DNA of 39,538 bases from a virus (lineage: Duplodnaviria; Caudoviricetes), in IMG/VR virus record IMGVR_UViG_3300040985_000229, positions 1-39,538 of that record; one strand, written 5' to 3'. The position numbers and the translations under genes are program-made. Under the pieces are notes generated by a model. It worked only from the letters and a program-made list of their open reading frames with translations, did no database searches and was not told where the DNA came from. Position 1 is the first letter of the stretch. Each line of letters starts with the position of its first letter. Positions 1,618 to 35,540 of the stretch are shown in pieces.

Positions 1618-1810
1618 GATGTTAAAGGCGAAGGACGTTTCAGATTGGCTTGGAGTCTCTGAGTCCGCCATCTACAAATGGGTGGGAGATGGTAATTTTC
1701 CCAAGCCCTATAAGCTTGGTGACGGAGAAGCGAAACGGTCTGCCAGTCGTTGGAGCTATGAAGATATAGAAAAATGGTTGGAGAAGCGGAGAAGCGGAGA
1801 AGCGTCATGA
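1598..1810 (+). CDS. alpA: AlpA/excisionase-family winged-helix DNA-binding protein
   Basis: MLKAKDVSDWLGVSESAIYKWVGDGNFPKPYKLG...SRWSYEDIEKW matches the AlpA pattern; SD AGGAG upstream. Confidence 0.85.
   Translation: MMTSPSKMLKAKDVSDWLGVSESAIYKWVGDGNFPKPYKLGDGEAKRSASRWSYEDIEKWLEKRRSGEAS
1780..1804 (+). repeat. Perfect tandem repeat (GGAGAAGC)x3 + G
   Basis: Copies at 1780-1787, 1788-1795 and 1796-1803. Confidence 0.95.
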
Positions 1811-2418
1811 GCAATGAAGACTTTAACCTCAAGATAACTGTTCGCAATGGGCGTCTGTTGAAAGCCATACGAGAAAGATACGAGTCTGTTTCCGATCTAG
1901 CGAGGAAAATAAATAGAAACCCATCAGGTGTAAACAGTCTTGTTACTATGAGGCAGGCTCCGACTAACCAACATGGCTGGACAGACCTAGCTTTGGATGT
2001 TTCTGCGATGGTTGGAAAAGATCCAGAAGATCTTTGGCCGGAGCACATGCGTGAGATCAAGTTAAAGAAATCGTCTGCCGAGGTGTCTTTAGATTTAGAC
2101 AGTGTAAAGAATATCTTGTCTAACGGTTCTGTGGAGAAAAACTTGTCTCAAATAACCGCACTTAAAGAGTTATCAGAACGCCTTACACCACGGGAAAAAG
2201 AGGTACTCAATCGCAGGTTTCACGAGAAGCAAAGCCTCGGAGAGGTAGCCAAGGTCTTTAATGTAACAAGAGAGCGCGTGCGTCATATAGAGGCGAAGGC
2301 GCTGCGAAGGATGCGGATGAGAGCCTTACAGTTGGGTTACAGCGCGGATGATCGGAGCGAATATTATGCGTGGCAGTTCTCGGCAGGGCAAAAAGCCAGA
2401 GATTTATTGGATGATTAA
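1807..2418 (+). CDS. N-terminal HTH (XRE-like) fused to a sigma70 region-4 domain
   Basis: SVSDLARKINRNPSGVN...VGKDPEDLW in the N-half; LTPREKEVLNRRF...SLGEVAKVFNVTRERVRHIEAKALRRMR resembles RpoD 4.1/4.2; ATG 1807 in ATGA overlap with the alpA stop. Confidence 0.8.
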   Translation: MSNEDFNLKITVRNGRLLKAIRERYESVSDLARKINRNPSGVNSLVTMRQAPTNQHGWTDLALDVSAMVGKDPEDLWPEHMREIKLKKSSAEVSLDLDSVKNILSNGSVEKNLSQITALKELSERLTPREKEVLNRRFHEKQSLGEVAKVFNVTRERVRHIEAKALRRMRMRALQLGYSADDRSEYYAWQFSAGQKARDLLDD

Positions 2419-16518: not shown

Positions 16519-19500
16519 CTATGACGCCCCGCTAAAGTTATAACCTAAGTTCGCAGTAAACAAGCTGACCGCACCACCTAGAACATTTCCTGACGTAAAG
16601 TCAGGATAAGGACTACCACTACTTCGTGTGTATACTTGCGGCTGCGCGGTATTGCTATGAGTAAAGAAATACTTTGTAGCAGAAGAATCTACCTGAATTC
16701 CTGAGTATCCTCCAATCTTACCGCTATACGTAGCTGTCCCTATATACGTGCTTTCACTCGGCAATGCGAAAGGGGTCTTACATTGATATGTCACTAAAGC
16801 GCCTAAAGCGTCTTGGTGCAAAATAAGATACTTGCCGCCGGGAGTGTAATGAAACGCGGTTACCAAGCCTTGTCCGATACCTGCGTTACTAGGGCTAGTT
16901 TGGCTCCACAAAGGGTCATCTGTTACGGTAACTGCGCTACTAATGTTTGACGCCGTAGCAAACCGAAACCGTTTAATGTTTGGTTGAACCGCTGAAACAG
17001 ATGTAGCGCTTGGAGAAGCCCCAGAAGATTGCGGATTAGTGTCCAACATAAAGAAATCTTTTTGATCGTCGGAAACTTGAAGCCCATTTAAGCCATAGTA
17101 AGACGCGGAAAAAGGCTTATAATCAGTCGGTGGGTTATATTGATAAGTGTCGGTAGCGTTTATAGTTCCATCAAGATCATATGCAGTGCCTAAGACGATT
17201 TGCCCAAGTTCTATTGTAGCGCCACTAGGAAGTGGATTAGCAAATGCTGTTTGGAAATACAGGCAAGTTCCATCCCTTGAGATATCTATTCCCATGCATC
17301 TAGACGACCCCGGTTCATCTAGCTGAAAACCATACGTAGATTTAGCAAGTGTCTGATCTCGGCGTAGGTCAGAAAGATCCCATGCTGTATCGGTTTTATA
17401 CCGATAGATGTTTTCTTTGTCGTGAGAGTAGGCGTACAGCCCGTTTGATGCCCACTTAAAATCGCTACTAACAGGAGTCCTGTATGTGTTAGACAGGTCA
17501 AAATAATTTGTGCTAGAGCCAACTATACCTGTGTAATACTGGCTTTGGCTTAAACATTGAATAGCGGGAGTACGATTTCGATCTACTATGGCTTCTGGGG
17601 AAGACACACTATAAACATAATTCCTGTCATGGGACAGGAAGCACCGCCAAGGGTACACTTTCCACGCCCAAGTTTTTACGCCCCAAAGCTGATTGTACGC
17701 TAAGTCTGCTTGCCCTCTATTTGTAGAGCCAGCACTTGACCCTGATGACATTGTTCTAATGTCATATGCCGTATTTAGCTTGTAAGTATATAAACCCGAC
17801 TTTTCGTCATAGGCAGTATGATCGTCCATGCACACACAAAGAACCGTGCCGTTCTTGTTAAAGTAAAATCCGCGCAGTTCGCCGTTGTCAAACGAGGCAT
17901 TATTATTGTTGCGTATCTCCCACCAGTCCCCGCTTGAACTGGTTGAGGTGGAGTCCGTGGCAGTGACAAGCGTTGTCACATCCCAACCTGTGCCCATTTC
18001 TGTTGTACCAATTACGGTATATCCAACAGAATTCATAGTCACCAATGTTCCGTCTGGAGATATCCTGACTTGATCAGGGTTCCATTGTGTTAGCACATTA
18101 GATGATTTAGCGGAAAAAGACACACTTGAAGGCTTGATGTCCCAAGCAGAGGACAAGCTAAACTTATACAACCACATGTTATCCGCAGACATATCTTCCG
18201 CGCCCACAATAAACTGGGTTCCATCTGGCTTTATGTTTAAGCTTCTTACATAATCTACATTGGCATCTTGGGCTTTACAAAGTTTTTCAATACTGACGGT
18301 GTCTTCCCAGTTTATAGTGCCGCCCATCAATGGGTTTTTCTTCAAAGCCTCTAGAACGTCATATTTAAATATAAAGCCGCCAAAAGAGTTCTCTGTAAAG
18401 ACATAAAACTTTTTCTGGGCTTCAGGAGTCATATGGAAATCATCCACACACTGCCCGGTCAGCGCCCGGTTGTAGACGTTGCCTTGTAAATCAAACGATA
18501 TGTCAATACTGGTCACTGGTGTGGGGTAACTGATACTTTGGTGCACATTAGCCCCTGTCCCGCAAGTGTATCGAGTAAGCGTCCTACCATAACTGGTAGA
18601 CCCGTTGTCACTGAAACTAAAGAAATAACCGTTTCCACCAGAATTAACAAACGTAGCCCCACCTTGGCTCATATAGTACTGGCTTGATGCCATAAATGAG
18701 TACGTATACAAAAAATTAGATGTAGGGGCATTTAACTGTGGCTGACCCAATTCATAGGAAGTAACGCCCGAACCTGAGTCAAATCTATAGATTTTTCCAA
18801 GGTCTGTAATAATCCGTAAATACTCGCCATCGTTAGACGTGCCATGTTTTCCGTCCCACCATATGTCCAGAATTTTTGACCCATCTAGTCCAACCGCAGG
18901 ATCCCAAGCAGAACTGCCGCCCCCTCCGTTAGCAGGAACATTTGTAATAAAGTTTGAATGGAGTTGACTTGTCCACGTTGACGTAACATCCCAGTTGGTG
19001 CCTAATGTATATTCCCAAGCCTCTCCTGCCTTATTTGTACTGAAAATAAAAAACTTATCCCCACCAGTGGAGAAATTCCAAGACGCCGTATCTTCAACAC
19101 TCCAAGAAGACGCATAACCACTAAGGTCTTTAGAGGCGGTAAGAGTTGCTGAAGTAATGTCCCACGCTGAAGATAAAGCGAATTCATACAGTCTTTCGCC
19201 TCCATTCTTGGAGCTAGGGTCATAGGGGTTTCGACCTTGCAGCATAAGAAACATCTTAGTGCCGTCATCTTTAAACCGAATTCCTGCGGCGTTGTTAATT
19301 GCCTGCGGCAACATATCCCCCGATATGTCAAACTCCTTAAATTGTACTGTGGATTTATCGACTGTAGACAGATCATATGCAGAGGTTAAATCAACTTGCA
19401 GAATACGAGCTTTCCCCGATGCAGCGTAAGTAGTGGTTTTATCCAAGCCACCCTGCGCTTGGCTAGTATTGGGGTAAGAAAGATAAAGACGTGTGCCGCC

Positions 19501-19797
19501 TTCTTTGAACTCAAAACAAGCGTTTGTTCCTAGACCTGGGACCTGAAAGCCCATTCCGTCTGTGCCTATATGTCTGAGTTCTCCTTCAGCAGGCCCCGCA
19601 GTCCAAATACCATCACTGGTTAGATCCCCTCTCCAAGATGCCGCAGGTGCACCCCAGTCAATGCAGTTTTCCGTCAGCCCTGGCTCATCACTATCTCCAG
19701 TAGGAGTATTACTTTGAGGAGATAAGATACCCGAACCACGGTATATGTCTTTCGGGGTCTTACTAGACAGAATTGTCTTGCCAGAAGCTCGGCTCAT
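16519..19797 (-). CDS. Multi-beta-propeller receptor-binding / tail protein (1092 aa)
   Basis: Repeated blades F..DG...f + L(S/G)(S/T)A(W/Y)D(I/L/V); start moved to ATG 19797 (TAATG overlap with the upstream stop). Confidence 0.72.
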   Translation of the reverse strand: MSRASGKTILSSKTPKDIYRGSGILSPQSNTPTGDSDEPGLTENCIDWGAPAASWRGDLTSDGIWTAGPAEGELRHIGTDGMGFQVPGLGTNACFEFKEGGTRLYLSYPNTSQAQGGLDKTTTYAASGKARILQVDLTSAYDLSTVDKSTVQFKEFDISGDMLPQAINNAAGIRFKDDGTKMFLMLQGRNPYDPSSKNGGERLYEFALSSAWDITSATLTASKDLSGYASSWSVEDTASWNFSTGGDKFFIFSTNKAGEAWEYTLGTNWDVTSTWTSQLHSNFITNVPANGGGGSSAWDPAVGLDGSKILDIWWDGKHGTSNDGEYLRIITDLGKIYRFDSGSGVTSYELGQPQLNAPTSNFLYTYSFMASSQYYMSQGGATFVNSGGNGYFFSFSDNGSTSYGRTLTRYTCGTGANVHQSISYPTPVTSIDISFDLQGNVYNRALTGQCVDDFHMTPEAQKKFYVFTENSFGGFIFKYDVLEALKKNPLMGGTINWEDTVSIEKLCKAQDANVDYVRSLNIKPDGTQFIVGAEDMSADNMWLYKFSLSSAWDIKPSSVSFSAKSSNVLTQWNPDQVRISPDGTLVTMNSVGYTVIGTTEMGTGWDVTTLVTATDSTSTSSSGDWWEIRNNNNASFDNGELRGFYFNKNGTVLCVCMDDHTAYDEKSGLYTYKLNTAYDIRTMSSGSSAGSTNRGQADLAYNQLWGVKTWAWKVYPWRCFLSHDRNYVYSVSSPEAIVDRNRTPAIQCLSQSQYYTGIVGSSTNYFDLSNTYRTPVSSDFKWASNGLYAYSHDKENIYRYKTDTAWDLSDLRRDQTLAKSTYGFQLDEPGSSRCMGIDISRDGTCLYFQTAFANPLPSGATIELGQIVLGTAYDLDGTINATDTYQYNPPTDYKPFSASYYGLNGLQVSDDQKDFFMLDTNPQSSGASPSATSVSAVQPNIKRFRFATASNISSAVTVTDDPLWSQTSPSNAGIGQGLVTAFHYTPGGKYLILHQDALGALVTYQCKTPFALPSESTYIGTATYSGKIGGYSGIQVDSSATKYFFTHSNTAQPQVYTRSSGSPYPDFTSGNVLGGAVSLFTANLGYNFSGAS

Positions 19798-21008
19798 TAT
19801 GCCATTCCTAGTCCAGAAACAAATCCATACCAAGTAGTCCCGCCATCTCTGGTGTACAGAGAAAACACATCCACCGCATTTGCTGCCGTAGATAGCGTAG
19901 GAGCTACCCCTTCTGCCCAGTCCAAACTGGCAGGCCATGTGACGGCATACTGACTTGATGCGTGCTGCTTAATTTCAAGAACCATGCTATATGCGGTTCC
20001 CGAAGCAGGGACATTGCTAAAGGCGATTGTGGTTGCTTCGGATAACTGCGTGCTAAAGTTATTTGCCGCAGCACAATCCAGTGTAGTAGTGTTACTAGAA
20101 CTTGAGACAGACACATACGTCTCTTGGTAGGATGCGGCCTTTACTTTACCCGACAAGTTAACCAAGCCTGATGCTTGAGTAACTACCTTGCCATCTTCTG
20201 AGGTGCCTAAAGCGGTTATGTCGTTGTAGTTTAACTCGGCACCAGTTGCGGTCACCCCAAGAGACGCAATAGCAGTGTCACCACTTTCTGCTACCCAGTT
20301 TACTCCGTCACCAACAATGAAGTTTCCGTTGGTTACAGCCAATCCCGCAATATCGGTAAGACCCGCATCATATGCTTGTACGTTTATTCCAATAGTCAGT
20401 CCAAGGTTGGTTCTTGCGCCTGAAGCTGACGATGCTCCTGTTCCTCCGTCAGCAATAGCAAGGTCAGTGATCCCCGAAACAGCGCCTCCCGTAATGGTGG
20501 CATTTGAGGAAGTAATAGCTCCCGTATATTCAGATGTGCCCGTAATCTTGACATCCGCTACTTCCAAGCCGTCAAGCATGTCCACGATGCCCGGACCTTT
20601 CGCCGCTACTATCTTGGTTTTGCCTGCCGAAATCGCAACTGTCCCGCCTGTGTTCTGACTGACAGTCATAGTATGGGAGGTGTTGTTGTGGATAATGTAC
20701 ACCTTAGACTGAGCATACAAAGCCGTGGCGTCATTCGATTTTATGAAAACGGTAAACGCGCCACTTGGACCCGCTCCTGCGGTAAATCGCAACGCCTTAT
20801 AATTGCCGTCTGCGTTAAGATCCGAAGCCTGAGTCATGTCGTTTGTGACAAGGTCAAAACTGGTGCCTGCTGCCAAGGTTATTTCTTTATAACCATGAGT
20901 GGCTCGATCCACCGCCTGCAAGTTAAGATTGGTCACAGTCCCCCATGTACCCGATTCTTCACCTGTACCTAGAAGGGCTAAACCATTTATATCTGAGTAT
21001 GTCGTCAT
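19797..21008 (-). CDS. Tail fibre / adaptor protein
   Basis: N-terminal GEESGTWGTVTNLNL anchor, LAIADGGTGASSASGARTNLGL fibre motif, C-terminal VTWPA...DGGTTWYG domain. Confidence 0.78.
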   Translation of the reverse strand: MTTYSDINGLALLGTGEESGTWGTVTNLNLQAVDRATHGYKEITLAAGTSFDLVTNDMTQASDLNADGNYKALRFTAGAGPSGAFTVFIKSNDATALYAQSKVYIIHNNTSHTMTVSQNTGGTVAISAGKTKIVAAKGPGIVDMLDGLEVADVKITGTSEYTGAITSSNATITGGAVSGITDLAIADGGTGASSASGARTNLGLTIGINVQAYDAGLTDIAGLAVTNGNFIVGDGVNWVAESGDTAIASLGVTATGAELNYNDITALGTSEDGKVVTQASGLVNLSGKVKAASYQETYVSVSSSSNTTTLDCAAANNFSTQLSEATTIAFSNVPASGTAYSMVLEIKQHASSQYAVTWPASLDWAEGVAPTLSTAANAVDVFSLYTRDGGTTWYGFVSGLGMA

Positions 21009-21017
21009 TTTTCCATC

Positions 21018-21434
21018 CTATAAAATAGTCTCACTCCAAGAAGCATTAGGATTAGGTGTTACATCACTATACTGTTTATTTGGGTTTGGAGCAACTGTGA
21101 CATAGTTATGAACCTGACTGGGAGTTTCAGTCGTCCAAGGCGCAACCGATGTTGGATCAACTGGCACATAGTTAATCCCCGGAACAACAGGATTAAAGTC
21201 CCAAACAAACACCGACCCAATCTTACCTATCATAGCCGCAGGAGCAGATATTGCTTCTTCTACGGTAACGAATCCTACTTCTCCTCGCAAGAAAGGAGGA
21301 GTAGGAGCAAGGACATAATTGACAAGAACACTGCCTACAGCAGTAGTGGCAGACACCCCTGTAACAAGTACCTCTACATTCGTACCTAAAGAACTTGCTA
21401 AAGGGGCTGCGGATATAGGGCCAGAACCAAGCAT
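21018..21434 (-). CDS. Tail-associated structural protein
   Basis: 138 aa, MLGSGPISAAPLAS start, TGVSATTAVGSV unit; SD AGGAG. Confidence 0.65.
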   Translation of the reverse strand: MLGSGPISAAPLASSLGTNVEVLVTGVSATTAVGSVLVNYVLAPTPPFLRGEVGFVTVEEAISAPAAMIGKIGSVFVWDFNPVVPGINYVPVDPTSVAPWTTETPSQVHNYVTVAPNPNKQYSDVTPNPNASWSETIL

Positions 21435-21443
21435 CTTTTCTCC

Positions 21444-22430
21444 TTAATACGTTGTAGTGTTTCCGTCATCGTCGGCTTGAGTTGCAAGTGTTAAAGGAAA
21501 CGCCCTTGCTGCTCCCCACATTATACGGACGCCTCCTGCACTTCCTGCTCCGCCGCCATACGCAGAGTCGTCTTCTGCGCCAGTGCCGCCGCCGCCATAC
21601 TGCCCTGTTCTCGCCGTGGTCGAGGTTACAAGGCCCCCATCATACCCATGAGTAGTGGTCTGATTTCCACTGTTATTAGCCGCCGCCGCAGCGCCACTTG
21701 TGACTTCACCAAAAAGACGAGCGCCACCACCACCACTGGTGACAAGAGAATTGTAACCGTTTACCGCGCCGCCGCCGCCGCCACCGCCACCCGCTCCTGC
21801 GGATGGCGAAATGTTATAGTACCCGCCAACGCCGCCGTTACCAGAGTATCCTGCCGCGCCGCCGCCTCCAGAACCCCCGTTTCCACTGACCCCGCCTCGG
21901 CCACCGCCACCCGTGCCGCCACCGCCGCCAAGAGTTCCACTGGAATTGCCCCCGCCATTGGCGAGTACCGCAGCATTACTGATGCTATACGTCCCTTTGT
22001 TCCCTCCATCGGCGCGAGCCACGTCTGAAGCGCTTATCTGAACATATGAGTCGCCGCCATCCGCTGCGTTGTTGTTCCCTGCCGCAGACCCGCCGCTGCC
22101 GCCACCGCCTACAACAACTGGGATAGAAGCCCCCGGAGTGACTGATATTGAGTTCCTCCAGTGAAGACCACCTCCGCTGCCGCCACCGCCAGAAATACCA
22201 TTCGATGCAAGTGTTGAAGCAGAAGCCCCGCCGCCCCCGCCTACGCACACAATTGATACAGATGTAACACCAACTGGGACTGTCCAGTTTGTTGTTCCAA
22301 CCGTCTCAAAAACAGCAGAACCTAGAGGAGGAACATTGTTCTCAATATAAGAATCTTCTAGCCCCCAAACACCATCGCCGGGGTACGGAATTTTTTCTCC
22401 TATTATTCCTCCGTTTATTCTCCAGTTCAT
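21444..22430 (-). CDS. Glycine-rich adhesin-like protein, copy 2 (328 aa)
   Basis: WTVPVGVTSVSIVCVGGGGG...GGGGAAGYSG...GGVRIMWG; polyglycine-II type domain. Confidence 0.8.
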   Translation of the reverse strand: MNWRINGGIIGEKIPYPGDGVWGLEDSYIENNVPPLGSAVFETVGTTNWTVPVGVTSVSIVCVGGGGGASASTLASNGISGGGGSGGGLHWRNSISVTPGASIPVVVGGGGSGGSAAGNNNAADGGDSYVQISASDVARADGGNKGTYSISNAAVLANGGGNSSGTLGGGGGTGGGGRGGVSGNGGSGGGGAAGYSGNGGVGGYYNISPSAGAGGGGGGGGAVNGYNSLVTSGGGGARLFGEVTSGAAAAANNSGNQTTTHGYDGGLVTSTTARTGQYGGGGTGAEDDSAYGGGAGSAGGVRIMWGAARAFPLTLATQADDDGNTTTY

Positions 22431-22439
22431 GTGTTTAAC

Positions 22440-23426
22440 CTATACAATAGTCACATTACCATTACTATCAGACACAGCGGTATTTGTGCTAGGATAAGCC
22501 CGCCCTGCGCCCCATATTATACGAACTGCGCCCTGACCGCCATCGCCCCCAGTGCCTGAATAAACACTACTGTTTCCGCCGCCGCCTGCGCCGTATGTGC
22601 CCCCATCTTGCGTCCCCGACCCAATGTTGCCGTCAGTGCCTCCTGAACCGCCCCCCGCAGCAAGATTACTGCCTCCCTGAGTACCATTAGCCCCGGCTTC
22701 AAATAATCCTACACCGCCGCCGCCATAACTTTTATATAATGAGCTGCTATATCCGCCACCACCACCGCCGTCCCCACTATAAGATCCACCCGCGTACCTG
22801 TTGTCCCCTGTGCCTCCTACCGAACTATACCCTGCGGCACCGCCGCCGCCCGCAGGGCCGTATCCAGACGATCCAAACCCTTCTGATGGGCCTCCGTTAT
22901 TTCCTACCGCCGTCTTGCCTGAAGTCACAGAATAAGTTCCCCCAGATATGGTTGTGGCGTACCGTCCGGGGTTTCCGCCATTTGCCTGAAAAGCTACACT
23001 ATCTCCTACGCCGTCAGTACCAGTAAAAGAACTAACTCCGCCCCCTGTTGACCCTGCACTGTACGCCCCATTTTGCCCTGATGCTCCTGCATTTATCGAA
23101 AAAGTTGCCCCCGGAGTAACAGACAGACTCGCCACATAAACAAGTGCCCCGCCCCCGCCGCCATTCATGCGATACGAATGAGTACTGCTGTTACTATTAT
23201 AGTACATGCCGCCCCCGCCCGCTCCAATACACACCAAACTAATATTTGTAATACGTGGAGGAACGGTAAATACATGTGTCCCAGTAGTCGTATATTGGAT
23301 CTCGCCAACAGTAGGGACGTTTAACGCTAAATACGGGCTTTTTAGATCGTATATGCCGCTTTGAGGATACTCTATGCTTGGTCTAGCTCCGAATATACTC
23401 CCCGATTTACGCCAAGGATGTACCAT
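22440..23426 (-). CDS. Glycine-rich adhesin-like protein, copy 1 (328 aa)
   Basis: FTVPPRITNISLVCIGAGGGG...GGGGAAGYS...GAVRIIWG; paralogue of the neighbouring gene. Confidence 0.8.
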   Translation of the reverse strand: MVHPWRKSGSIFGARPSIEYPQSGIYDLKSPYLALNVPTVGEIQYTTTGTHVFTVPPRITNISLVCIGAGGGGMYYNSNSSTHSYRMNGGGGGALVYVASLSVTPGATFSINAGASGQNGAYSAGSTGGGVSSFTGTDGVGDSVAFQANGGNPGRYATTISGGTYSVTSGKTAVGNNGGPSEGFGSSGYGPAGGGGAAGYSSVGGTGDNRYAGGSYSGDGGGGGGYSSSLYKSYGGGGVGLFEAGANGTQGGSNLAAGGGSGGTDGNIGSGTQDGGTYGAGGGGNSSVYSGTGGDGGQGAVRIIWGAGRAYPSTNTAVSDSNGNVTIV

Positions 23427-26134: not shown

Positions 26135-26407
26135 TTAAATTCTCCTTATAAGCTCCGCCAATTTAGGATGACCTGCGTCTACTATCGCATTATACACAGT
26201 TATTCGATCATTGCGAACTGATCTTTTCATGTAGTGAGTCATCACTGAAATCAGCTTGTTTCTGAAGTCATTTGCCTGTTCTCTTATCTCAGGAGTAGCA
26301 TCATCGGAAATATACACAAGCTTATCCGCGCACTGCTCCGCAAGTTCTTCGGGCGTTAAACCTCGGTGGTCGGTAGTAATAACCTTAAATGCAAGAGACT
26401 CTATCAT
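26135..26407 (-). CDS. Hypothetical phage protein
   Basis: 90 aa, ATGA-coupled within the operon. Confidence 0.7.
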   Translation of the reverse strand: MIESLAFKVITTDHRGLTPEELAEQCADKLVYISDDATPEIREQANDFRNKLISVMTHYMKRSVRNDRITVYNAIVDAGHPKLAELIRRI

Positions 26408-27372
26408 TGTTTCTGCCGTATAACCTTCCCTAGGCGATACTCGTCCGTAGTCTGTTTGGCTTCACCTAGTTGCTTCAATCCCTGCAACGACTCATTAAAT
26501 CGAGCCGTGTACATCTGCATAACATCTGCCTCAGATTTCATAAAGATGCCTGCCTCGATCAATGCACCATAAAACATACCCATCTCAGCGTTTTGACTTA
26601 GCCATGTAGTTCCTGAACCTGCCCCCGAAGTTAAGCTTACAGGCCGATAAAAATACGTTAGCTGAATAGTGTATGGCGCGTTGGGAGGAGGAGATACGAT
26701 AAAGTTGTCGTTATCAAACTGCGCGTAATATCTCGGTGCCCCAGTCGAAGAAGGATTAGATGTGTAAGACCGTAAAAAACTCGGGTCCTTAAAGTCTAAA
26801 TACTCCGAAGAATCTGCGAGGGCGGTGTTGTAATAGGAAGAATAAGACCCTTGATTAGCTGCCATATACGGCAACATTGTGCCCTCTATATAGGTCACAA
26901 CCGCATCCGTAAGAGAAGCGTCTTTAGTTGCGCCCAACCATTTCCAACTAATGTAGTGGTTTATTGTAGTAGAATCAAACGCAGTCACCGTATCTGTGTT
27001 GTCTAAATCTGCTAAAGGTCTGCCGGGGGTCGCTTCAGCCGTAACAAAAAGTGCAACAGAAGATGCAGGAGTCCCTGCCGCCGCCTCTAGTATTCCTAAT
27101 GTTAGGTTGTATGCACTGTCTCCATATGGAAATGGATTGGCAGAAAAGCTCAACGAAAACGGAGCTAAAAAATCAGAAGGGACATTTAAGTACTGGTTTC
27201 CTGCGATGAGATTGGCCTGTTGGCTCTTACGAAACAAACTTAGTTGAACCGTTTTAAGAATTCGTTCCTCTGCCATCCGAATAAACAGAGGCAAGTTAGC
27301 GGTAAACGTAGCCTCATCATTATCAGTATATTGCTGTATCGCCGTTTTTAGCTCGTCATATGTAAACGCCAT
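26404..27372 (-). CDS. Head-tail adaptor-like protein with an internal ~105-aa insertion
   Basis: TYDELKTAIQQY...FIRMAEERI...YLNVPSDFL; GAPRYYA...VSPPPNAPY.IQL.Y; TTWLSQNA...YGALIEA. Confidence 0.75.
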   Translation of the reverse strand: MAFTYDELKTAIQQYTDNDEATFTANLPLFIRMAEERILKTVQLSLFRKSQQANLIAGNQYLNVPSDFLAPFSLSFSANPFPYGDSAYNLTLGILEAAAGTPASSVALFVTAEATPGRPLADLDNTDTVTAFDSTTINHYISWKWLGATKDASLTDAVVTYIEGTMLPYMAANQGSYSSYYNTALADSSEYLDFKDPSFLRSYTSNPSSTGAPRYYAQFDNDNFIVSPPPNAPYTIQLTYFYRPVSLTSGAGSGTTWLSQNAEMGMFYGALIEAGIFMKSEADVMQMYTARFNESLQGLKQLGEAKQTTDEYRLGKVIRQKQ

Positions 27373-28185
27373 TTATGCCTCCACCGTAATCGGGCCTGCG
27401 GATACACCGCTACCGCCGAACCTTTCATTGTCAATAGCGCTTCTCACAATAAACTCAATCCCGATGGCTTGGTATTGCGCCAGACGTTCTTCTGTAAGCG
27501 TCATGTAATCCGTCATCTCACTCTCAATAAAAGTGGTTTGATCCACAGGGATGGCTATATTAGTTTCCCACTTGAGCGCTTGTAACGAGTCTTGTGAATA
27601 GACCGACCCATTGTTGTCAATATCTCCAAGTTTTCTGCCACCGCCAATGTCCACATTAAATAGGGTTGCTTGAGGCTCTAATGCCGCCACCGCCTCCACA
27701 ATGGGAATGCTAATGTTCCCATAGGTACGAGCTATTGAATTTGCAGGTCGGTCTGTCACTGCAATAGAGAAAGAATCCGCCGTATTCGCGGTGATTGTGT
27801 GCCCTTCTGCTCTATTAAGAAACGCCGCTGTAATGTGTAAAACAGGAGGAGCATCCCTAAAACGAACAATATCGCCTGTTTTACGGGAAGTTCCTGGCTC
27901 TATGACCTGAAAGCTTATTGTTGCAGAATTATAGGCAGAGGACAAAACAAACGGATTGTTTTCTAATAAAACCTCAACAGGAGGTTCTACTCGATCTGGT
28001 CGTGCGTTCTGAATAGCCTGTGGATCAGGAGAGATCCTAGGAGGGAATAATTGAGGATGTTTCGGCTCGTACTCATCTGGGCCAACAAGAGATCCTGTCC
28101 ATTCCTTCTTCATTGTCCGCAAGCGATAGCGCCTGCCTGACCTGTCAGATATTCCCCATGCTTTACTGCCGCTAGCGTATGCCAT
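27373..28185 (-). CDS. Head-completion / neck-associated protein with an internal ~100-aa insertion
   Basis: GISDRSGRRY...KEWTGSLVGPDEYEPKHPQL N-terminus, then a beta domain (RKTGDIVRFR); TAATG-coupled. Confidence 0.7.
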   Translation of the reverse strand: MAYASGSKAWGISDRSGRRYRLRTMKKEWTGSLVGPDEYEPKHPQLFPPRISPDPQAIQNARPDRVEPPVEVLLENNPFVLSSAYNSATISFQVIEPGTSRKTGDIVRFRDAPPVLHITAAFLNRAEGHTITANTADSFSIAVTDRPANSIARTYGNISIPIVEAVAALEPQATLFNVDIGGGRKLGDIDNNGSVYSQDSLQALKWETNIAIPVDQTTFIESEMTDYMTLTEERLAQYQAIGIEFIVRSAIDNERFGGSGVSAGPITVEA

Positions 28186-28850
28186 TACACCCTCAAATAC
28201 CTTATACTAGGTTGCAGTTTAAGTGAGGTACGACCTATATCTTCGTCCGCTGCTCGTTGAAACTCTTCTTCATACACAGACTTTAAAAGCTGCACACGAT
28301 CAGGGGCACGCTTCATCGCCATATAATACGCTAGCCCTGCAACCATGCAGGGGTAAAATCGAAAAGGCATGTCGGTAGTGTTCGTCAAAGCGTCCGCATC
28401 TTCTATTCGCTGCACATAGTAAAAAATCAACTGATCCGTTGAGTTTTCAGGCACCGTCCATAAATTGATTACAGGCACAATCTGCCTGTCAAAGTAGAAC
28501 TGAGAAGGGCGTCCTTGAGTTGTTTTATTAGGAAGAGTTAAATAATCCCCCCTACTAATCCGTTGGACAGTGTAGTCCGTGCCATCCCGGCGAAGAACCA
28601 CTTCTAGTAAGTCTACAACATCTGCGGTCAACGTGATCGCTGCTGTTCCTTGAGTCAAGGTCTTAGTGTCTTGCTCAACTGTCCACAGGTTTACACCACG
28701 ATTAGCCCAATCCGCAAACATCAGGTTCAAGGATCGTCTAGCCGTCTTGGCATCGTACCCTGTACGAACTTCTAGTCCGCAGCGCTCATATGCCTCTTCG
28801 ATGACTTCAGCGACATCGAGGTTAAAGTCTCTTGAACCAGAAGTAGCCAT
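28185..28850 (-). CDS. Head-tail adaptor / head-closure protein
   Basis: EVIEEAYERCG...ARRSLNLMFADWANRG, QGRPSQFY, PFRFYPCMVAGLAYY; ATG 28850 in TGATG overlap. Confidence 0.78.
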   Translation of the reverse strand: MATSGSRDFNLDVAEVIEEAYERCGLEVRTGYDAKTARRSLNLMFADWANRGVNLWTVEQDTKTLTQGTAAITLTADVVDLLEVVLRRDGTDYTVQRISRGDYLTLPNKTTQGRPSQFYFDRQIVPVINLWTVPENSTDQLIFYYVQRIEDADALTNTTDMPFRFYPCMVAGLAYYMAMKRAPDRVQLLKSVYEEEFQRAADEDIGRTSLKLQPSIRYLRV

Positions 28851-28975
28851 CAATAGCACCCCTTAAAGGTGCCCTTACGTACAAGCCCACCTTTTTTATA
28901 CTTAACTAACCCGCCTTTTTTCATACCTTGAGCTTTTTTAAACGCTGCATCAGTAGGGGCACCTTTTTTACCCAT
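28850..28975 (-). CDS. Small basic protein (41 aa) with two KKGGLV repeats
   Basis: MGKKGAPTDAAFKKAQGMKKGGLVKYKKGGLVRKGTFKGCY; strong SD AAGGAGAG; stop coupled to the next ATG. Confidence 0.75.
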   Translation of the reverse strand: MGKKGAPTDAAFKKAQGMKKGGLVKYKKGGLVRKGTFKGCY

Positions 28976-33082: not shown

Positions 33083-33568
33083 CTAAACATGCTTAACATC
33101 ATCTGGCTCTAGTAAAGTGGCGATAACTTCGTCATCATTAATAATGCGAACCTCGCCGCCATCAATTTGAAACCGTGAGCCAGAATACCGACCAATGCAC
33201 ACCCATTGACCCTCTTTGCACCAAGGAGCGTCATCTGATCCAAACTTTTCAGGGTCTTTGTACGCCAGTGGCCCAAGCTTCATTACGTATGCCACAACTG
33301 TAGCAACCCGTTCCCGCTCTCTCACCTCATCAGGAATGTATAACCCGCTCGATGTTTTAGCTTTACCTTGATACGGCATGACTAAAACCCTCCAACCTGT
33401 GGGTTGAGGAAGTCGATCAAGTAACGGTTTGTCTAGAAGAGTTGGGTCTAATACCCGTTCTTTAGCGTCAACATATGCGCTTTCCAAAGTATCAGAACCC
33501 TTTTTGGATTCTTTTTCTTTGTTCATTTTCTGCGCGACATGGTCAGGAAGATATAAGGTCTTCGACAT
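33083..33568 (-). CDS. groES: GroES/Cpn10-like co-chaperonin
   Basis: PTGWRVLV...KTSSGLYIPD...GQWVCIGRYSG...GGEVRIINDDEVIA. Confidence 0.88.
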   Translation of the reverse strand: MSKTLYLPDHVAQKMNKEKESKKGSDTLESAYVDAKERVLDPTLLDKPLLDRLPQPTGWRVLVMPYQGKAKTSSGLYIPDEVRERERVATVVAYVMKLGPLAYKDPEKFGSDDAPWCKEGQWVCIGRYSGSRFQIDGGEVRIINDDEVIATLLEPDDVKHV

Positions 33569-34117: not shown

Positions 34118-34350
34118 CAGTAGGTTCTCCCTCTTTGACGATTAAAACGAACATCGTTTTGCTGCTGACGGTTATTGTAATCCATGTCGTACTGTTGGAT
34201 TAAATAGTCCTGTAAATCCTCCATCCGTCTTCCTAGAGAAGATTTCTGGTTATACTCCCTATAAGTAGGGGCATTTGGATCCGTCAATGCTTCTGATAAA
34301 GCATCTTCAATAGCTTTTTTTGTGTTACGGGTAATCATTACGTCAACCAT
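34117..34350 (-). CDS. Hypothetical protein
   Basis: 77 aa, fills the gap between the endolysin and the Cys-rich gene. Confidence 0.62.
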   Translation of the reverse strand: MVDVMITRNTKKAIEDALSEALTDPNAPTYREYNQKSSLGRRMEDLQDYLIQQYDMDYNNRQQQNDVRFNRQRGRTY

Positions 34351-34955
34351 CCATAGATTTTTTTTGTTTTCTCTTGTCGATCTGACAAGCCATGATACCC
34401 ACCGTTTACTCTGCGCGTGATCTTTTTTATCACATCATCTGTGACGCCTTCTTCCGCAACTTTCAGCAAACCGTTTGTCTTGAAAAACCACAACGCTGTT
34501 TCAAACGCATACTCATCCTCTATCAAGCTTGGGTCTGTCATAACCTCTGGAACGCCCATATCTGAAGCAAAGGAACGGTAGTTGAGTTTTCCGGTCAACT
34601 GAAGCCAACCCCGGCCAATGTGCGCTTTAGCGTCCGCTTCGGAAAAATTTCCTAGGCTCTCCCGCAAATAAACTTTACCTGCGATTTTAGACGGTTGACG
34701 GTGGTATTCTTTGGCTTCTTCCTCTGTCTTAAAACGAGAAGGCCATGTTCTCATTAATCCCTCCCAACTATAGTTGAGATTTTCCCGTGCCCGTTTGAAG
34801 CCACCACTTTCGTGCATGGCTTGACCCAACAAATGTGCTGCTTGTTCCGCAGACAAATCGTAATGCTTGGCAATGCCCTTGGCAGTATTGGGGCCAAAAC
34901 TCCCGTCTGGAGTGCATCCGCACTTCTTTTGGAGCCTCCGCATTGCCTCACTCAT
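34338..34955 (-). CDS. Glycoside hydrolase family 19 endolysin with short N-terminal peptidoglycan-binding-like segment
   Basis: LQKKCG..PDGSFGPNT; AHLLGQAMHESGGF...ENLNYS; GRGWLQLTGKLNY; RRVNGGYHGLSDR; SD GGAG. Confidence 0.9.
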   Translation of the reverse strand: MSEAMRRLQKKCGCTPDGSFGPNTAKGIAKHYDLSAEQAAHLLGQAMHESGGFKRARENLNYSWEGLMRTWPSRFKTEEEAKEYHRQPSKIAGKVYLRESLGNFSEADAKAHIGRGWLQLTGKLNYRSFASDMGVPEVMTDPSLIEDEYAFETALWFFKTNGLLKVAEEGVTDDVIKKITRRVNGGYHGLSDRQEKTKKIYGWLT

Positions 34956-35044
34956 TTTTTAGTCTCCAGATACAAGCGATAACAGTTAACAGCCGTATTC
35001 AAGCTAACAGCCGTAAACAGTAAAATCCATTGCCACATGTCCAT
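34952..35044 (-). CDS. 30-aa single-TM micro-protein (not in ORF track)
   Basis: MDMWQWILLFTAVSLNTAVNCYRLYLETKK*; SD AAGGAG; TGATG overlap upstream, ATGA overlap with the endolysin. Confidence 0.7.
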   Translation of the reverse strand: MDMWQWILLFTAVSLNTAVNCYRLYLETKK

Positions 35045-35157
35045 CACGACTCCTTTGCATCTCGTTTGCCTTGACGACGATACTTCGCTTTATCCGCTTT
35101 CTTGTAGGACTTCTCCCACTGCTTGCTCAAGCAATATATTCGATCTCGCTTTGCCAT
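35044..35157 (-). CDS. 37-aa basic micro-protein (not in ORF track)
   Basis: MAKRDRIYCLSKQWEKSYKKADKAKYRRQGKRDAKES*; TAATG overlap with the holin stop. Confidence 0.68.
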   Translation of the reverse strand: MAKRDRIYCLSKQWEKSYKKADKAKYRRQGKRDAKES

Positions 35158-35540
35158 TATTTAGTGTCCGTTTTTGCAGACTTGTCATAGCTACGCATTC
35201 CCGCAATTCCAAGCATTCCAAATAGCAAAGGCATCATGACGCTCATATCGGCTTGCGGAATGACAACGCCAAACCCCGCGCAAATGGGCGCAACCATGTA
35301 ATTAATCCCAAGAGACAACCCAGATATCCATCCTATGAGCGGCCTCCAAGACGCCTGAAACCAGTTGCCTTTGGCATCGGCCTTGAGAACCTCAATTTGA
35401 GCAAGCATGGCATCCTGCGCGTGTCGCTCTGACATCGTTGCTATCTCATGAGCCAAGGCCGCTTTCTGATCCTTGTCCTCAACAAACTTATCTAGCAAAC
35501 CACTAACAGGGCCGACCAAATTATTTAATAATTGCATCAT
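35157..35540 (-). CDS. Holin, 3-TM (GTA-holin-like) family
   Basis: GLLDKFVEDKD...AQIEVLKADA...FQASWRPLIGW...LLFGMLGIAGMRSYDK. Confidence 0.85.
   Translation of the reverse strand: MMQLLNNLVGPVSGLLDKFVEDKDQKAALAHEIATMSERHAQDAMLAQIEVLKADAKGNWFQASWRPLIGWISGLSLGINYMVAPICAGFGVVIPQADMSVMMPLLFGMLGIAGMRSYDKSAKTDTK

Follow-up and report, generated by a model that had tools for sequence, protein, structure and literature searches.

Two adjacent genes in the morphogenesis block of a virus of the Caudoviricetes encode proteins that have a block of sequence in common and are otherwise unrelated, which raises the question of what this block is, how it came to lie in both genes, and what it may do on the particle. 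The whole stretch of DNA analysed, here called the window, is the linear IMG/VR virus record IMGVR_UViG_3300040985_000229 (39,538 nt), about 70% complete according to CheckV. Its replication block, with a primase-like protein, a UvrD helicase, and a family A polymerase, faces a minus-strand morphogenesis block that encodes the portal, GroES, the major capsid protein, two SU10-type adaptors, fibres, a nozzle-like structural protein, and ejection-type proteins. A sigma-70 region 4-like protein is encoded in the replication block (1774-2418, plus strand), the GroES co-chaperonin lies at 33083-33568 (minus), and a GH19 endolysin with a GTA-type holin is found between the portal and capsid genes (34338-35540, minus). 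The genes and inserts under study are the following:

26404..27372, minus strand: P0001, a 322-aa head-tail adaptor of the SU10 gp11 type and carrier of copy 1 (Pfam PF24175, E 6e-22; model compared with 7z47_A; Foldseek E 1e-5)
26812..27135, minus strand: copy 1 of the insert, aa 80-187 of P0001, absent from the 216-aa homologues (profile E 2e-34; pLDDT 81-93)
27373..28185, minus strand: P0002, a 270-aa protein of phrog_28581 (PHROG E 3e-27) and carrier of copy 2
27445..27747, minus strand: copy 2 of the insert, aa 147-247 of P0002, absent from the ~165-aa homologues (AlphaFold pLDDT 96, pTM 0.87; profile E 5e-28)
28185..28859, minus strand: a second SU10-type adaptor paralogue of 224 aa, without insert (PF24175, E 7e-12; no domain-profile match)

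The first-pass annotation of this DNA had described the common block and interpreted it as an insertion into shorter conserved proteins, and both statements hold. Residues 89-180 of P0001 and 157-238 of P0002 are 29% identical (BLASTP, E 2e-4), and the local score of the block pair, 72, was reached by one of 5000 shuffles; none of the 36 other ORFs of the window scored above 44 against either insert. The profile-profile comparison of the two host families (HHalign) gave a probability of 97.8% (E 6.8e-13, 86 columns) for a match that is limited to the blocks and occurs nowhere else, and the block boundaries originally proposed agree with those listed above. Among the best 119 of 3986 relatives of P0001, 94 are 215-218 aa long and lack the block, and 25, of 298-341 aa, carry it at one common site; of the best 119 of 544 relatives of P0002, most are 155-211 aa long and likewise lack it. 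Typical lengths without and with the block are 216 versus ~325 aa in the P0001 family and ~165 versus 255-418 aa in the P0002 family. Both blocks are homologous in-frame insertions, and the domain profile described below detects no further copy in the 39.5-kb record. A recent duplication between the window copies is ruled out by the lack of DNA similarity between them (best match 14 bases) and by the rejection of the two copies as sisters in the 71-row insert tree described below (AU p 5.5e-7).

The identification of the 322-aa protein as a neck adaptor is confirmed and made more specific, since P0001 belongs to the SU10 type on the basis of its PF24175 match, a Foldseek match, and a fold of helix bundle plus beta dock domain that superposes on SU10 gp11 (7z47_A; VIA Z 15.2, 196 residues, rmsd 4.5). 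The insert lies between predicted strands 68-78 and 190-192 of the adaptor beta domain and is separately confident in the full-length model; the low global pTM of 0.49 is as expected if the insert is an independent domain. SU10 gp11 is described, in the accessible text of PMC9509320, as a dodecamer whose dock domain binds the long tail fibres, and copy 1 would therefore sit in the outward-facing domain that is equivalent to this dock domain. Unlike P0001, SU10 gp11 and 13 cultured relatives (30-37% identity, C-terminal part) have no match over the insert, although the arrangement of helix bundle plus beta domain is common to these SU10 gp11/T7 gp11-type adaptors (PF24175; PDB 7z47); the closest cultured adaptors are those of HTVC027P, DSL-LC04, HTVC023P, and CRP-901, at 30-37% identity. 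For P0002 the earlier neck label derives from gene position, no sequence relatives of its family were found in the PDB, and the protein is probably a virion protein judging from that position. The SU10-type adaptor paralogues flank P0002 on either side (28185-28859 and 26404-27372, both minus), which suggests two stacked neck rings.

Other optional modules occur in the P0001 and P0002 families (P0128, P0129, P0173, P0208, L001:1112-1906, L013:8480-9334), so that these genes can be regarded as hotspots for accessory domains. In particular, members of the P0002 family elsewhere have an optional C-terminal domain ending in a Tyr-Tyr-Tyr-Cys..His motif, and the adaptor of L013 has a late insert of ~65 aa.

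A conserved feature of the inserts is a loop that resembles the F-hand Ca2+ loop of dockerins, whose established consensus is GDxNxDGxVxxxD. The elements recognised in the two copies are the following:

26974..27009, minus strand: F-hand-type loop of copy 1, D122-D133, single (sequence and column conservation)
27688..27711, minus strand: helix 1 of copy 2, aa 159-166, corresponding to the first dockerin helix without its Ca loop, in a putative register
27589..27624, minus strand: F-hand-type loop of copy 2, D188-D199, single, preceded by a conserved Gly-Arg-x-Leu-Gly motif
27466..27546, minus strand: two extra C-terminal helices of copy 2, aa 214-240, absent in dockerins (model; couplings to helix 3 and helix 2)

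Among 200 unique domains, D1 and D12 of the loop are both present in 183 (D1 in 94%, D12 in 96%) and the full D1/[DNTS]3/[DNTS]5/D12 pattern in 169; positions 3 and 5 are mostly D/N/T/S, and position 9 is T/S/N/D in 82%. The single loop follows the dockerin rule of Asp/Asn (or Ser/Thr) at positions 1, 3, 5, 9, and 12, with the exception of P0002, which is slightly off consensus in having Tyr at position 9; the P0001 loop departs slightly as well, with Thr at position 5 and Asp instead of Gly at position 6. A second loop motif was found in none of the 200 domains, in agreement with the one loop per protein originally noted, and the dockerin-like character of the loop is borne out by the best PDB sequence matches of the domain profile, which are dockerins, one loop-helix repeat at a time. 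The single loop is predicted to bind Ca2+. At the same site of the P0002 family there is also a variant insert of ~190 aa (L005:1-975, L006:3-710, L007:3179-4261; P0125, P0126), in which, in L005-L007, the C-terminal helices are kept and a stretch rich in Trp, Tyr, and Gly stands in place of the Ca loop, so that Ca binding is not essential at that site.

The AlphaFold model of the copy 2 domain is compact, with five helices, only beta bridges, and its two termini bridged; the predicted order of the elements is helix 1, helix 2, beta-hairpin, Ca loop, helix 3, and the two extra helices, with adjacent termini. In the wide fold search with VIA, dockerins occupy the top seven of 52 rows (Z 3.2-4.2, rmsd 2.4-3.9, 51-63 residues), model residues 3-4 to 64-73 being aligned onto the dockerin from the end of the first loop onward; such Z values are weak and can reflect a common helical arrangement, and they are used here only because the sequence matches lead to the same family as the fold. 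The comparison by AlphaFold and Foldseek that had been proposed thus gave a confident helical model, with dockerins at the top in VIA, but no Foldseek match against PDB and BFVD at E 0.001. The closest clusters in the ESM Atlas, taken as a lead only, are dockerin-domain proteins (score 0.88-0.90). Pfam PF00404 matches neither window copy above its curated cut-off; it matches eight of the 27 aligned members weakly (best E 3.5e-4), and three other carriers, P0324, P0308, and P0360, pass the cut-off.

Type I dockerins (PF00404; 2ccl_B, 3ul4_B, 4fl4_A, 8ajy) have the same D-x-[ND]-x-[ND]-G-x-V-x-x-x-D loop with its helix, and the same hydrophobic and Lys/Arg pattern as the phage domain, which is predicted to resemble them also in the arrangement of helices 1, 2, and 3. 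If helix 1 is placed in dockerin register, in each of the two helices position 16 is hydrophobic, position 18 is Arg/Lys/Gln, and position 22 is Gly. The couplings, which are weak (Neff 137), connect helix 1 to the loop and to the start of helix 3 (A165-V195, V166-S197), in agreement with dockerins, where helices 1 and 3 pack against each other; for the extra helices, the coupled partners are helix 2 and, in helix 3, positions 16 and 19. In contrast to type I dockerins, the phage domain lacks the first Ca loop in 200 of 200 cases, has a beta-hairpin with conserved Gly-Arg before the loop and two extra C-terminal helices, measures ~95 instead of ~70 aa, and is inserted in virion proteins. On the basis of their couplings to helix 3 and helix 2, the extra helices appear to replace the lost first Ca loop. 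Dockerins are defined, in the part of PMC6487960 that is accessible, by a duplicated pair of ~22-aa Ca-loop-helix motifs, and a domain with a single loop is not a dockerin by this definition but a derivative; from its sequence and model, the ~95-residue domain is classified as dockerin-derived. Atypical or non-cellulosomal dockerins, as the double dockerin 8x39/8x3a and R. flavefaciens ScaA with its clasp, likewise depart from the symmetric dockerin and have extra intramolecular stabilisation; in the accessible text of the two sources these are described as bacterial cohesin-binding modules, and none as a mobile virion insertion (PMC12484212, PMC3821032).

The presence of one loop per copy had led to the proposal that the two copies are half-sites that pair in trans, each being half a dockerin, so that two copies (the adaptor with its neighbour, or around the ring) would form a two-calcium unit cross-linking the neck. 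The domain is indeed present in both adjacent genes in the window and in L002, and tandem arrays exist. However, each copy holds equivalents of helices 1, 2, and 3 and is predicted to fold alone at pLDDT 96, those helix-3 positions that would point towards the missing loop are coupled to the extra helices, and the window copies are not sisters but derive from different clades. Moreover, among the 12 loci that show both genes (several of them close relatives, on partial contigs) the insert is in both genes at two, in only one at seven, present only as the loop-less variant at two, and in neither at one. Pairing in trans is hence very improbable, and the proposal is not supported; the prediction of a complex of copy 1, copy 2, and two Ca scored 0.27 against a mark of 0.32 and is not used as evidence. 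As modelled, the domain is self-contained and not a half-site. A natural circular permutant (P0372/P0391), opened at the hairpin, has the loop and helices 3-5 first and helices 1-2 last and occupies a different site of an SU10-type adaptor (aa ~60-144 of P0391); by domain order, 204 are normal, two permuted, and 19 have no detectable N-half. The permutant and the tandem arrays, of up to five copies in P0241, indicate an autonomous module.

The distribution of the module was determined with a domain profile built from a 27-row insert alignment, as had been recommended, and searched against 1.84 billion 50%-identity representatives at E 0.001. The profile matched 331 proteins, and the results that follow refer to the best 150 of them, which comprise 145 new proteins; at least 60 profile positions were matched by 104 of these, one of which is a dockerin repeat protein. 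In the remaining 41, mostly multi-repeat proteins matched in the loop, the match covered part of the profile, and three of them are true members. At 50% clustering the best 150 of 331 contain ~110 carriers, including five previously known proteins. PHROG matches were obtained for 53 of the 106 carriers scanned, the other 53 being without label: 41 of the labels are tail, head, connector, or adsorption functions, six a peptidase family, five families of unknown function, and one an RCC1 repeat, with no replication or transcription enzyme among the 53. The virion families include tail-tip J, baseplate wedges, nozzle-like phrog_3287, adaptors, fibres, and spikes, the adaptors and nozzle-like proteins being of podovirus type. 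Gene neighbourhoods agree with these labels, with P22-gp10-like closure proteins, siphovirus-type tail-tip J, and T4-like baseplate wedge genes, the latter adjoining also the gene of one peptidase-family carrier. The designation as a module of the virion neck is too narrow for the family: in other phage types the domain is also carried by fibres, by closure proteins, and by proteins of the tail tip and the baseplate wedge. The domain is found not only in loops but also at protein termini and in tandem; some carriers are spacer-rich chains with two to five copies, and in others, which are short, the domain forms the end of the protein.

Neither PHROGs nor Pfam assigned the isolated window inserts to a family, and three diverse copies had no tblastn match at E 1 in 50,697 GenBank phage records. 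A search of GTDB genomes with one narrow pattern, weak as evidence of absence, gave 49 matches, one of which (L028) passed tblastn and had no domain-profile match, so that this search assigned the module to no prophage or host. In the literature on dockerins with phage, virion, tail, or cohesin, whose coverage was incomplete, no description of the domain was found; in the accessible text of two phage papers a dockerin appears only through a CBM from a dockerin-bearing protein (PMC5967307) or as a BLAST hit (PMC3558961). The protein P0324 (608 aa, 2.2-kb contig) has a signal-peptide-like N-terminus, two tandem full copies, and then a reprolysin-like zinc peptidase; it looks like an exported cellular peptidase rather than a virion protein and may represent a cellular relative of the module or its source.

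How the inserts reached their genes can be followed in two trees. The insert tree (71 rows, confined to the three host families that are commonest in this phage group, P0249, P0294, and P0146 being left out, with long-branch warnings) rejects, besides the window copies as sisters, the adaptor inserts as one clade (AU p 9.4e-6). In the host adaptor tree (49 rows with insert columns removed, including 15 of the 94 short relatives), the insert-bearing adaptors require five changes and are rejected as one clade (AU p 1e-36), and distant adaptors use the same insertion site; P0028, whose host is sister to P0005/P0006 yet has no insert, looks like a loss. P0014 and P0018 are 96% identical in the host part and 27% in the insert, P0006 and P0011 63% and 91%, respectively, and the mean identities over 325 pairs are 69% and 38%. 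Over 954 upstream bases, the locus L029 and the window are 99.4% identical; in codons 1-147 of the P0002 gene they differ by one silent change, and divergence starts from codon 148, which is the insert boundary. The inserts have thus, to judge from alignments and trees, been gained, lost, and exchanged, and the earlier view of the blocks as one homologous mobile family is supported.

This in-frame, sporadic occurrence with reuse of the same site would also be expected of a self-splicing or selfish insertion, such as a mini-intein, an intron, or a transposon remnant. An origin of this kind is hardly credible: the model is all-helical, neither Pfam nor PDB gave a Hint or endonuclease match, intein end motifs and splice-junction residues were not seen by inspection, and the domain also lies at protein termini and in tandem. 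No flanking or target-site repeat longer than six bases, GC anomaly, or mobility gene was found, and with neither mobility gene nor target repeat, ordinary and illegitimate recombination are the likely vehicle.

The same features bear on the possibility that the domain is a structural or near-neutral passenger, a stable and small Ca-stapled domain tolerated in outer loops and spread by recombination, which would at most stiffen or shield the particle and would have no specific ligand. Its patchy presence with clean losses such as P0028, the 94 of the best 119 adaptor relatives that do without it, the centring of conservation on core and loop residues, and the persistence of the loop-less variant are all compatible with a passenger. 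On the other hand, in codon comparisons the inserts are under purifying selection in nine of 12 pairs (dN/dS 0.11-0.53; 1.02 in one and two saturated, the pairs sharing members), gains took place repeatedly and independently, in many families as well as at the one adaptor site, the domain grew to four to five tandem copies, and there is no mobility gene or flanking repeat to drive selfish spread; a mere passenger is therefore considered rather unlikely.

The occurrence of the domain is sporadic, exchangeable, copy-variable, selected, and mainly on virion proteins, and accessory display domains such as the Ig-like domains of Hoc behave in this way. According to the accessible text of PMC13435897, the number of the latter is variable, and they have been connected with mucin retention. 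Ig-like domains of Hoc and of tail proteins are also small, sporadic, and copy-variable, occur on unrelated virion proteins of several phage types, and are exchanged horizontally between phages. The difference lies in the fold, the Ig-like domains being beta-sandwiches and the dockerin-derived domain, with its five helices and only beta bridges, being all-alpha with a Ca loop, usually placed in loops and found in uncultured phages only. Ig-like accessory domains are exposed on the surface and attach weakly to cell surfaces or glycans; for the dockerin-derived domain both would follow from the host proteins only. A broader survey of phage Ig-like domains was reportedly made by Fraser et al. in 2006, and the BACON domains of crAss-like phages are accessory display domains as well. 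The dockerin-derived domain unites two known kinds, the dockerin fold and the phage accessory domain.

By this analogy, it is marginally probable that the domain is an exchangeable, fast-varying, Ca-stabilised accessory adhesin on the outside of the particle, using a variable face formed by helix 1 and helix 3. Ambient Ca2+ in seawater or lake water would rigidify the loop, the extra helices would stand in for the missing first loop, and the face of helices 1 and 3, through which true dockerins bind cohesin, would stay exposed and vary. Many copies per particle, 12 if the P0001 adaptor forms a ring like SU10 gp11, could provide multivalent, weak, and reversible binding to a ligand on the host or particle surface, keeping the phage near its host until the true receptor-binding fibres engage, and recombination in the conserved flanks would swap the cassette and so retune specificity. 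The changes between L029 and the window cluster in the entry linker and in helix 1, the most variable part of copy 2 in this comparison, with the hairpin and Ca loop identical in DNA. In helix 1 they fall at putative dockerin positions 14, 17, 18, 21, and 22, of which 17, 18, and 22 are reputed recognition positions according to the accessible text of PMC6487960. The variability of the putative face is 3.08 bits, compared with 1.25 for the core (positions picked as conserved) and 2.45 overall; it weighs little, since high variability is expected of any exposed surface, and the assignment of the face itself derives from the weak coupling analysis (Neff 137). Against the adhesin reading stand the weak fold matches, the 53 of 106 carriers without label, the apparently cellular P0324, and the loop-less variant of L005-L007.

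The dockerin ancestry would also suit a docking plug for a phage-encoded partner, in which, as in cellulosomes, a phage protein, cohesin-like or other (a decoration, an enzyme, or an auxiliary fibre), is brought onto the particle by the domain, and copy 1 lies in the beta domain that would correspond to the long-tail-fibre dock domain of SU10. Such a plug is unlikely: no cohesin family was found by Pfam in the long ORFs of the window (record ~70% complete), exchange of the insert independently of near-identical surroundings would break a matched partner, and the positions on the particle differ widely between phages. A further and rather doubtful reading is that aquatic phages of all three tail types have domesticated the dockerin for recognition: the plug would hold one calcium, be swapped as a cassette, and bind beta-sandwich proteins of bacterial surfaces, cohesin-like or other, with gating by ambient Ca2+ and retuning by recombination of helix 1; if true, this would be natural dockerin-type host recognition by viruses.

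The domain represents a virion accessory family without its own Pfam or PHROG model in the scans performed, with ~110 distinct protein clusters in the best 150 of 331 matches, and not found in cultured phage genomes with the three query copies in the 50,697 GenBank phage records. Its carriers include relatives of the HTVC023P-type podoviruses, described in the accessible text of bioRxiv 10.1101/2019.12.14.876532 as the most abundant known marine phage group, the tie of the window to this group consisting in 30-36% adaptor identity only. The domain adds one fold to the few that phages display as swappable modules on their surface, and it outlines a route leading from a symmetric dockerin with two calcium ions to an asymmetric domain with one, complete with a natural circular permutant. 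Moreover, the domains are small, soluble, and easily expressed objects for studying how uncultured aquatic phages hold their hosts, and their tolerance as loop inserts maps permissive display sites on necks, nozzles, and baseplates.

Other genes of the window deserve mention. Among the fibre genes, a 1139-aa ORF (16519-19938, minus) has no PHROG and no significant Pfam match; it overlaps the end of a 403-aa fibre gene by ~140 bases, so that its true start is probably further in. The two tandem 328-aa paralogues at 21444-23426 (minus) have a Gly-rich domain (PF21722, phrog_4474), and in P0307, P0338, and L012, which belong to the same family, the dockerin-derived domain is present. The 138-aa protein at 21018-21434 (minus) belongs to a family that is a variable-length scaffold, whose relatives (L001:5521-6672, L011, L035, L037; P0241) have one to five tandem copies of the domain between Val/Thr/Gly-rich spacers.
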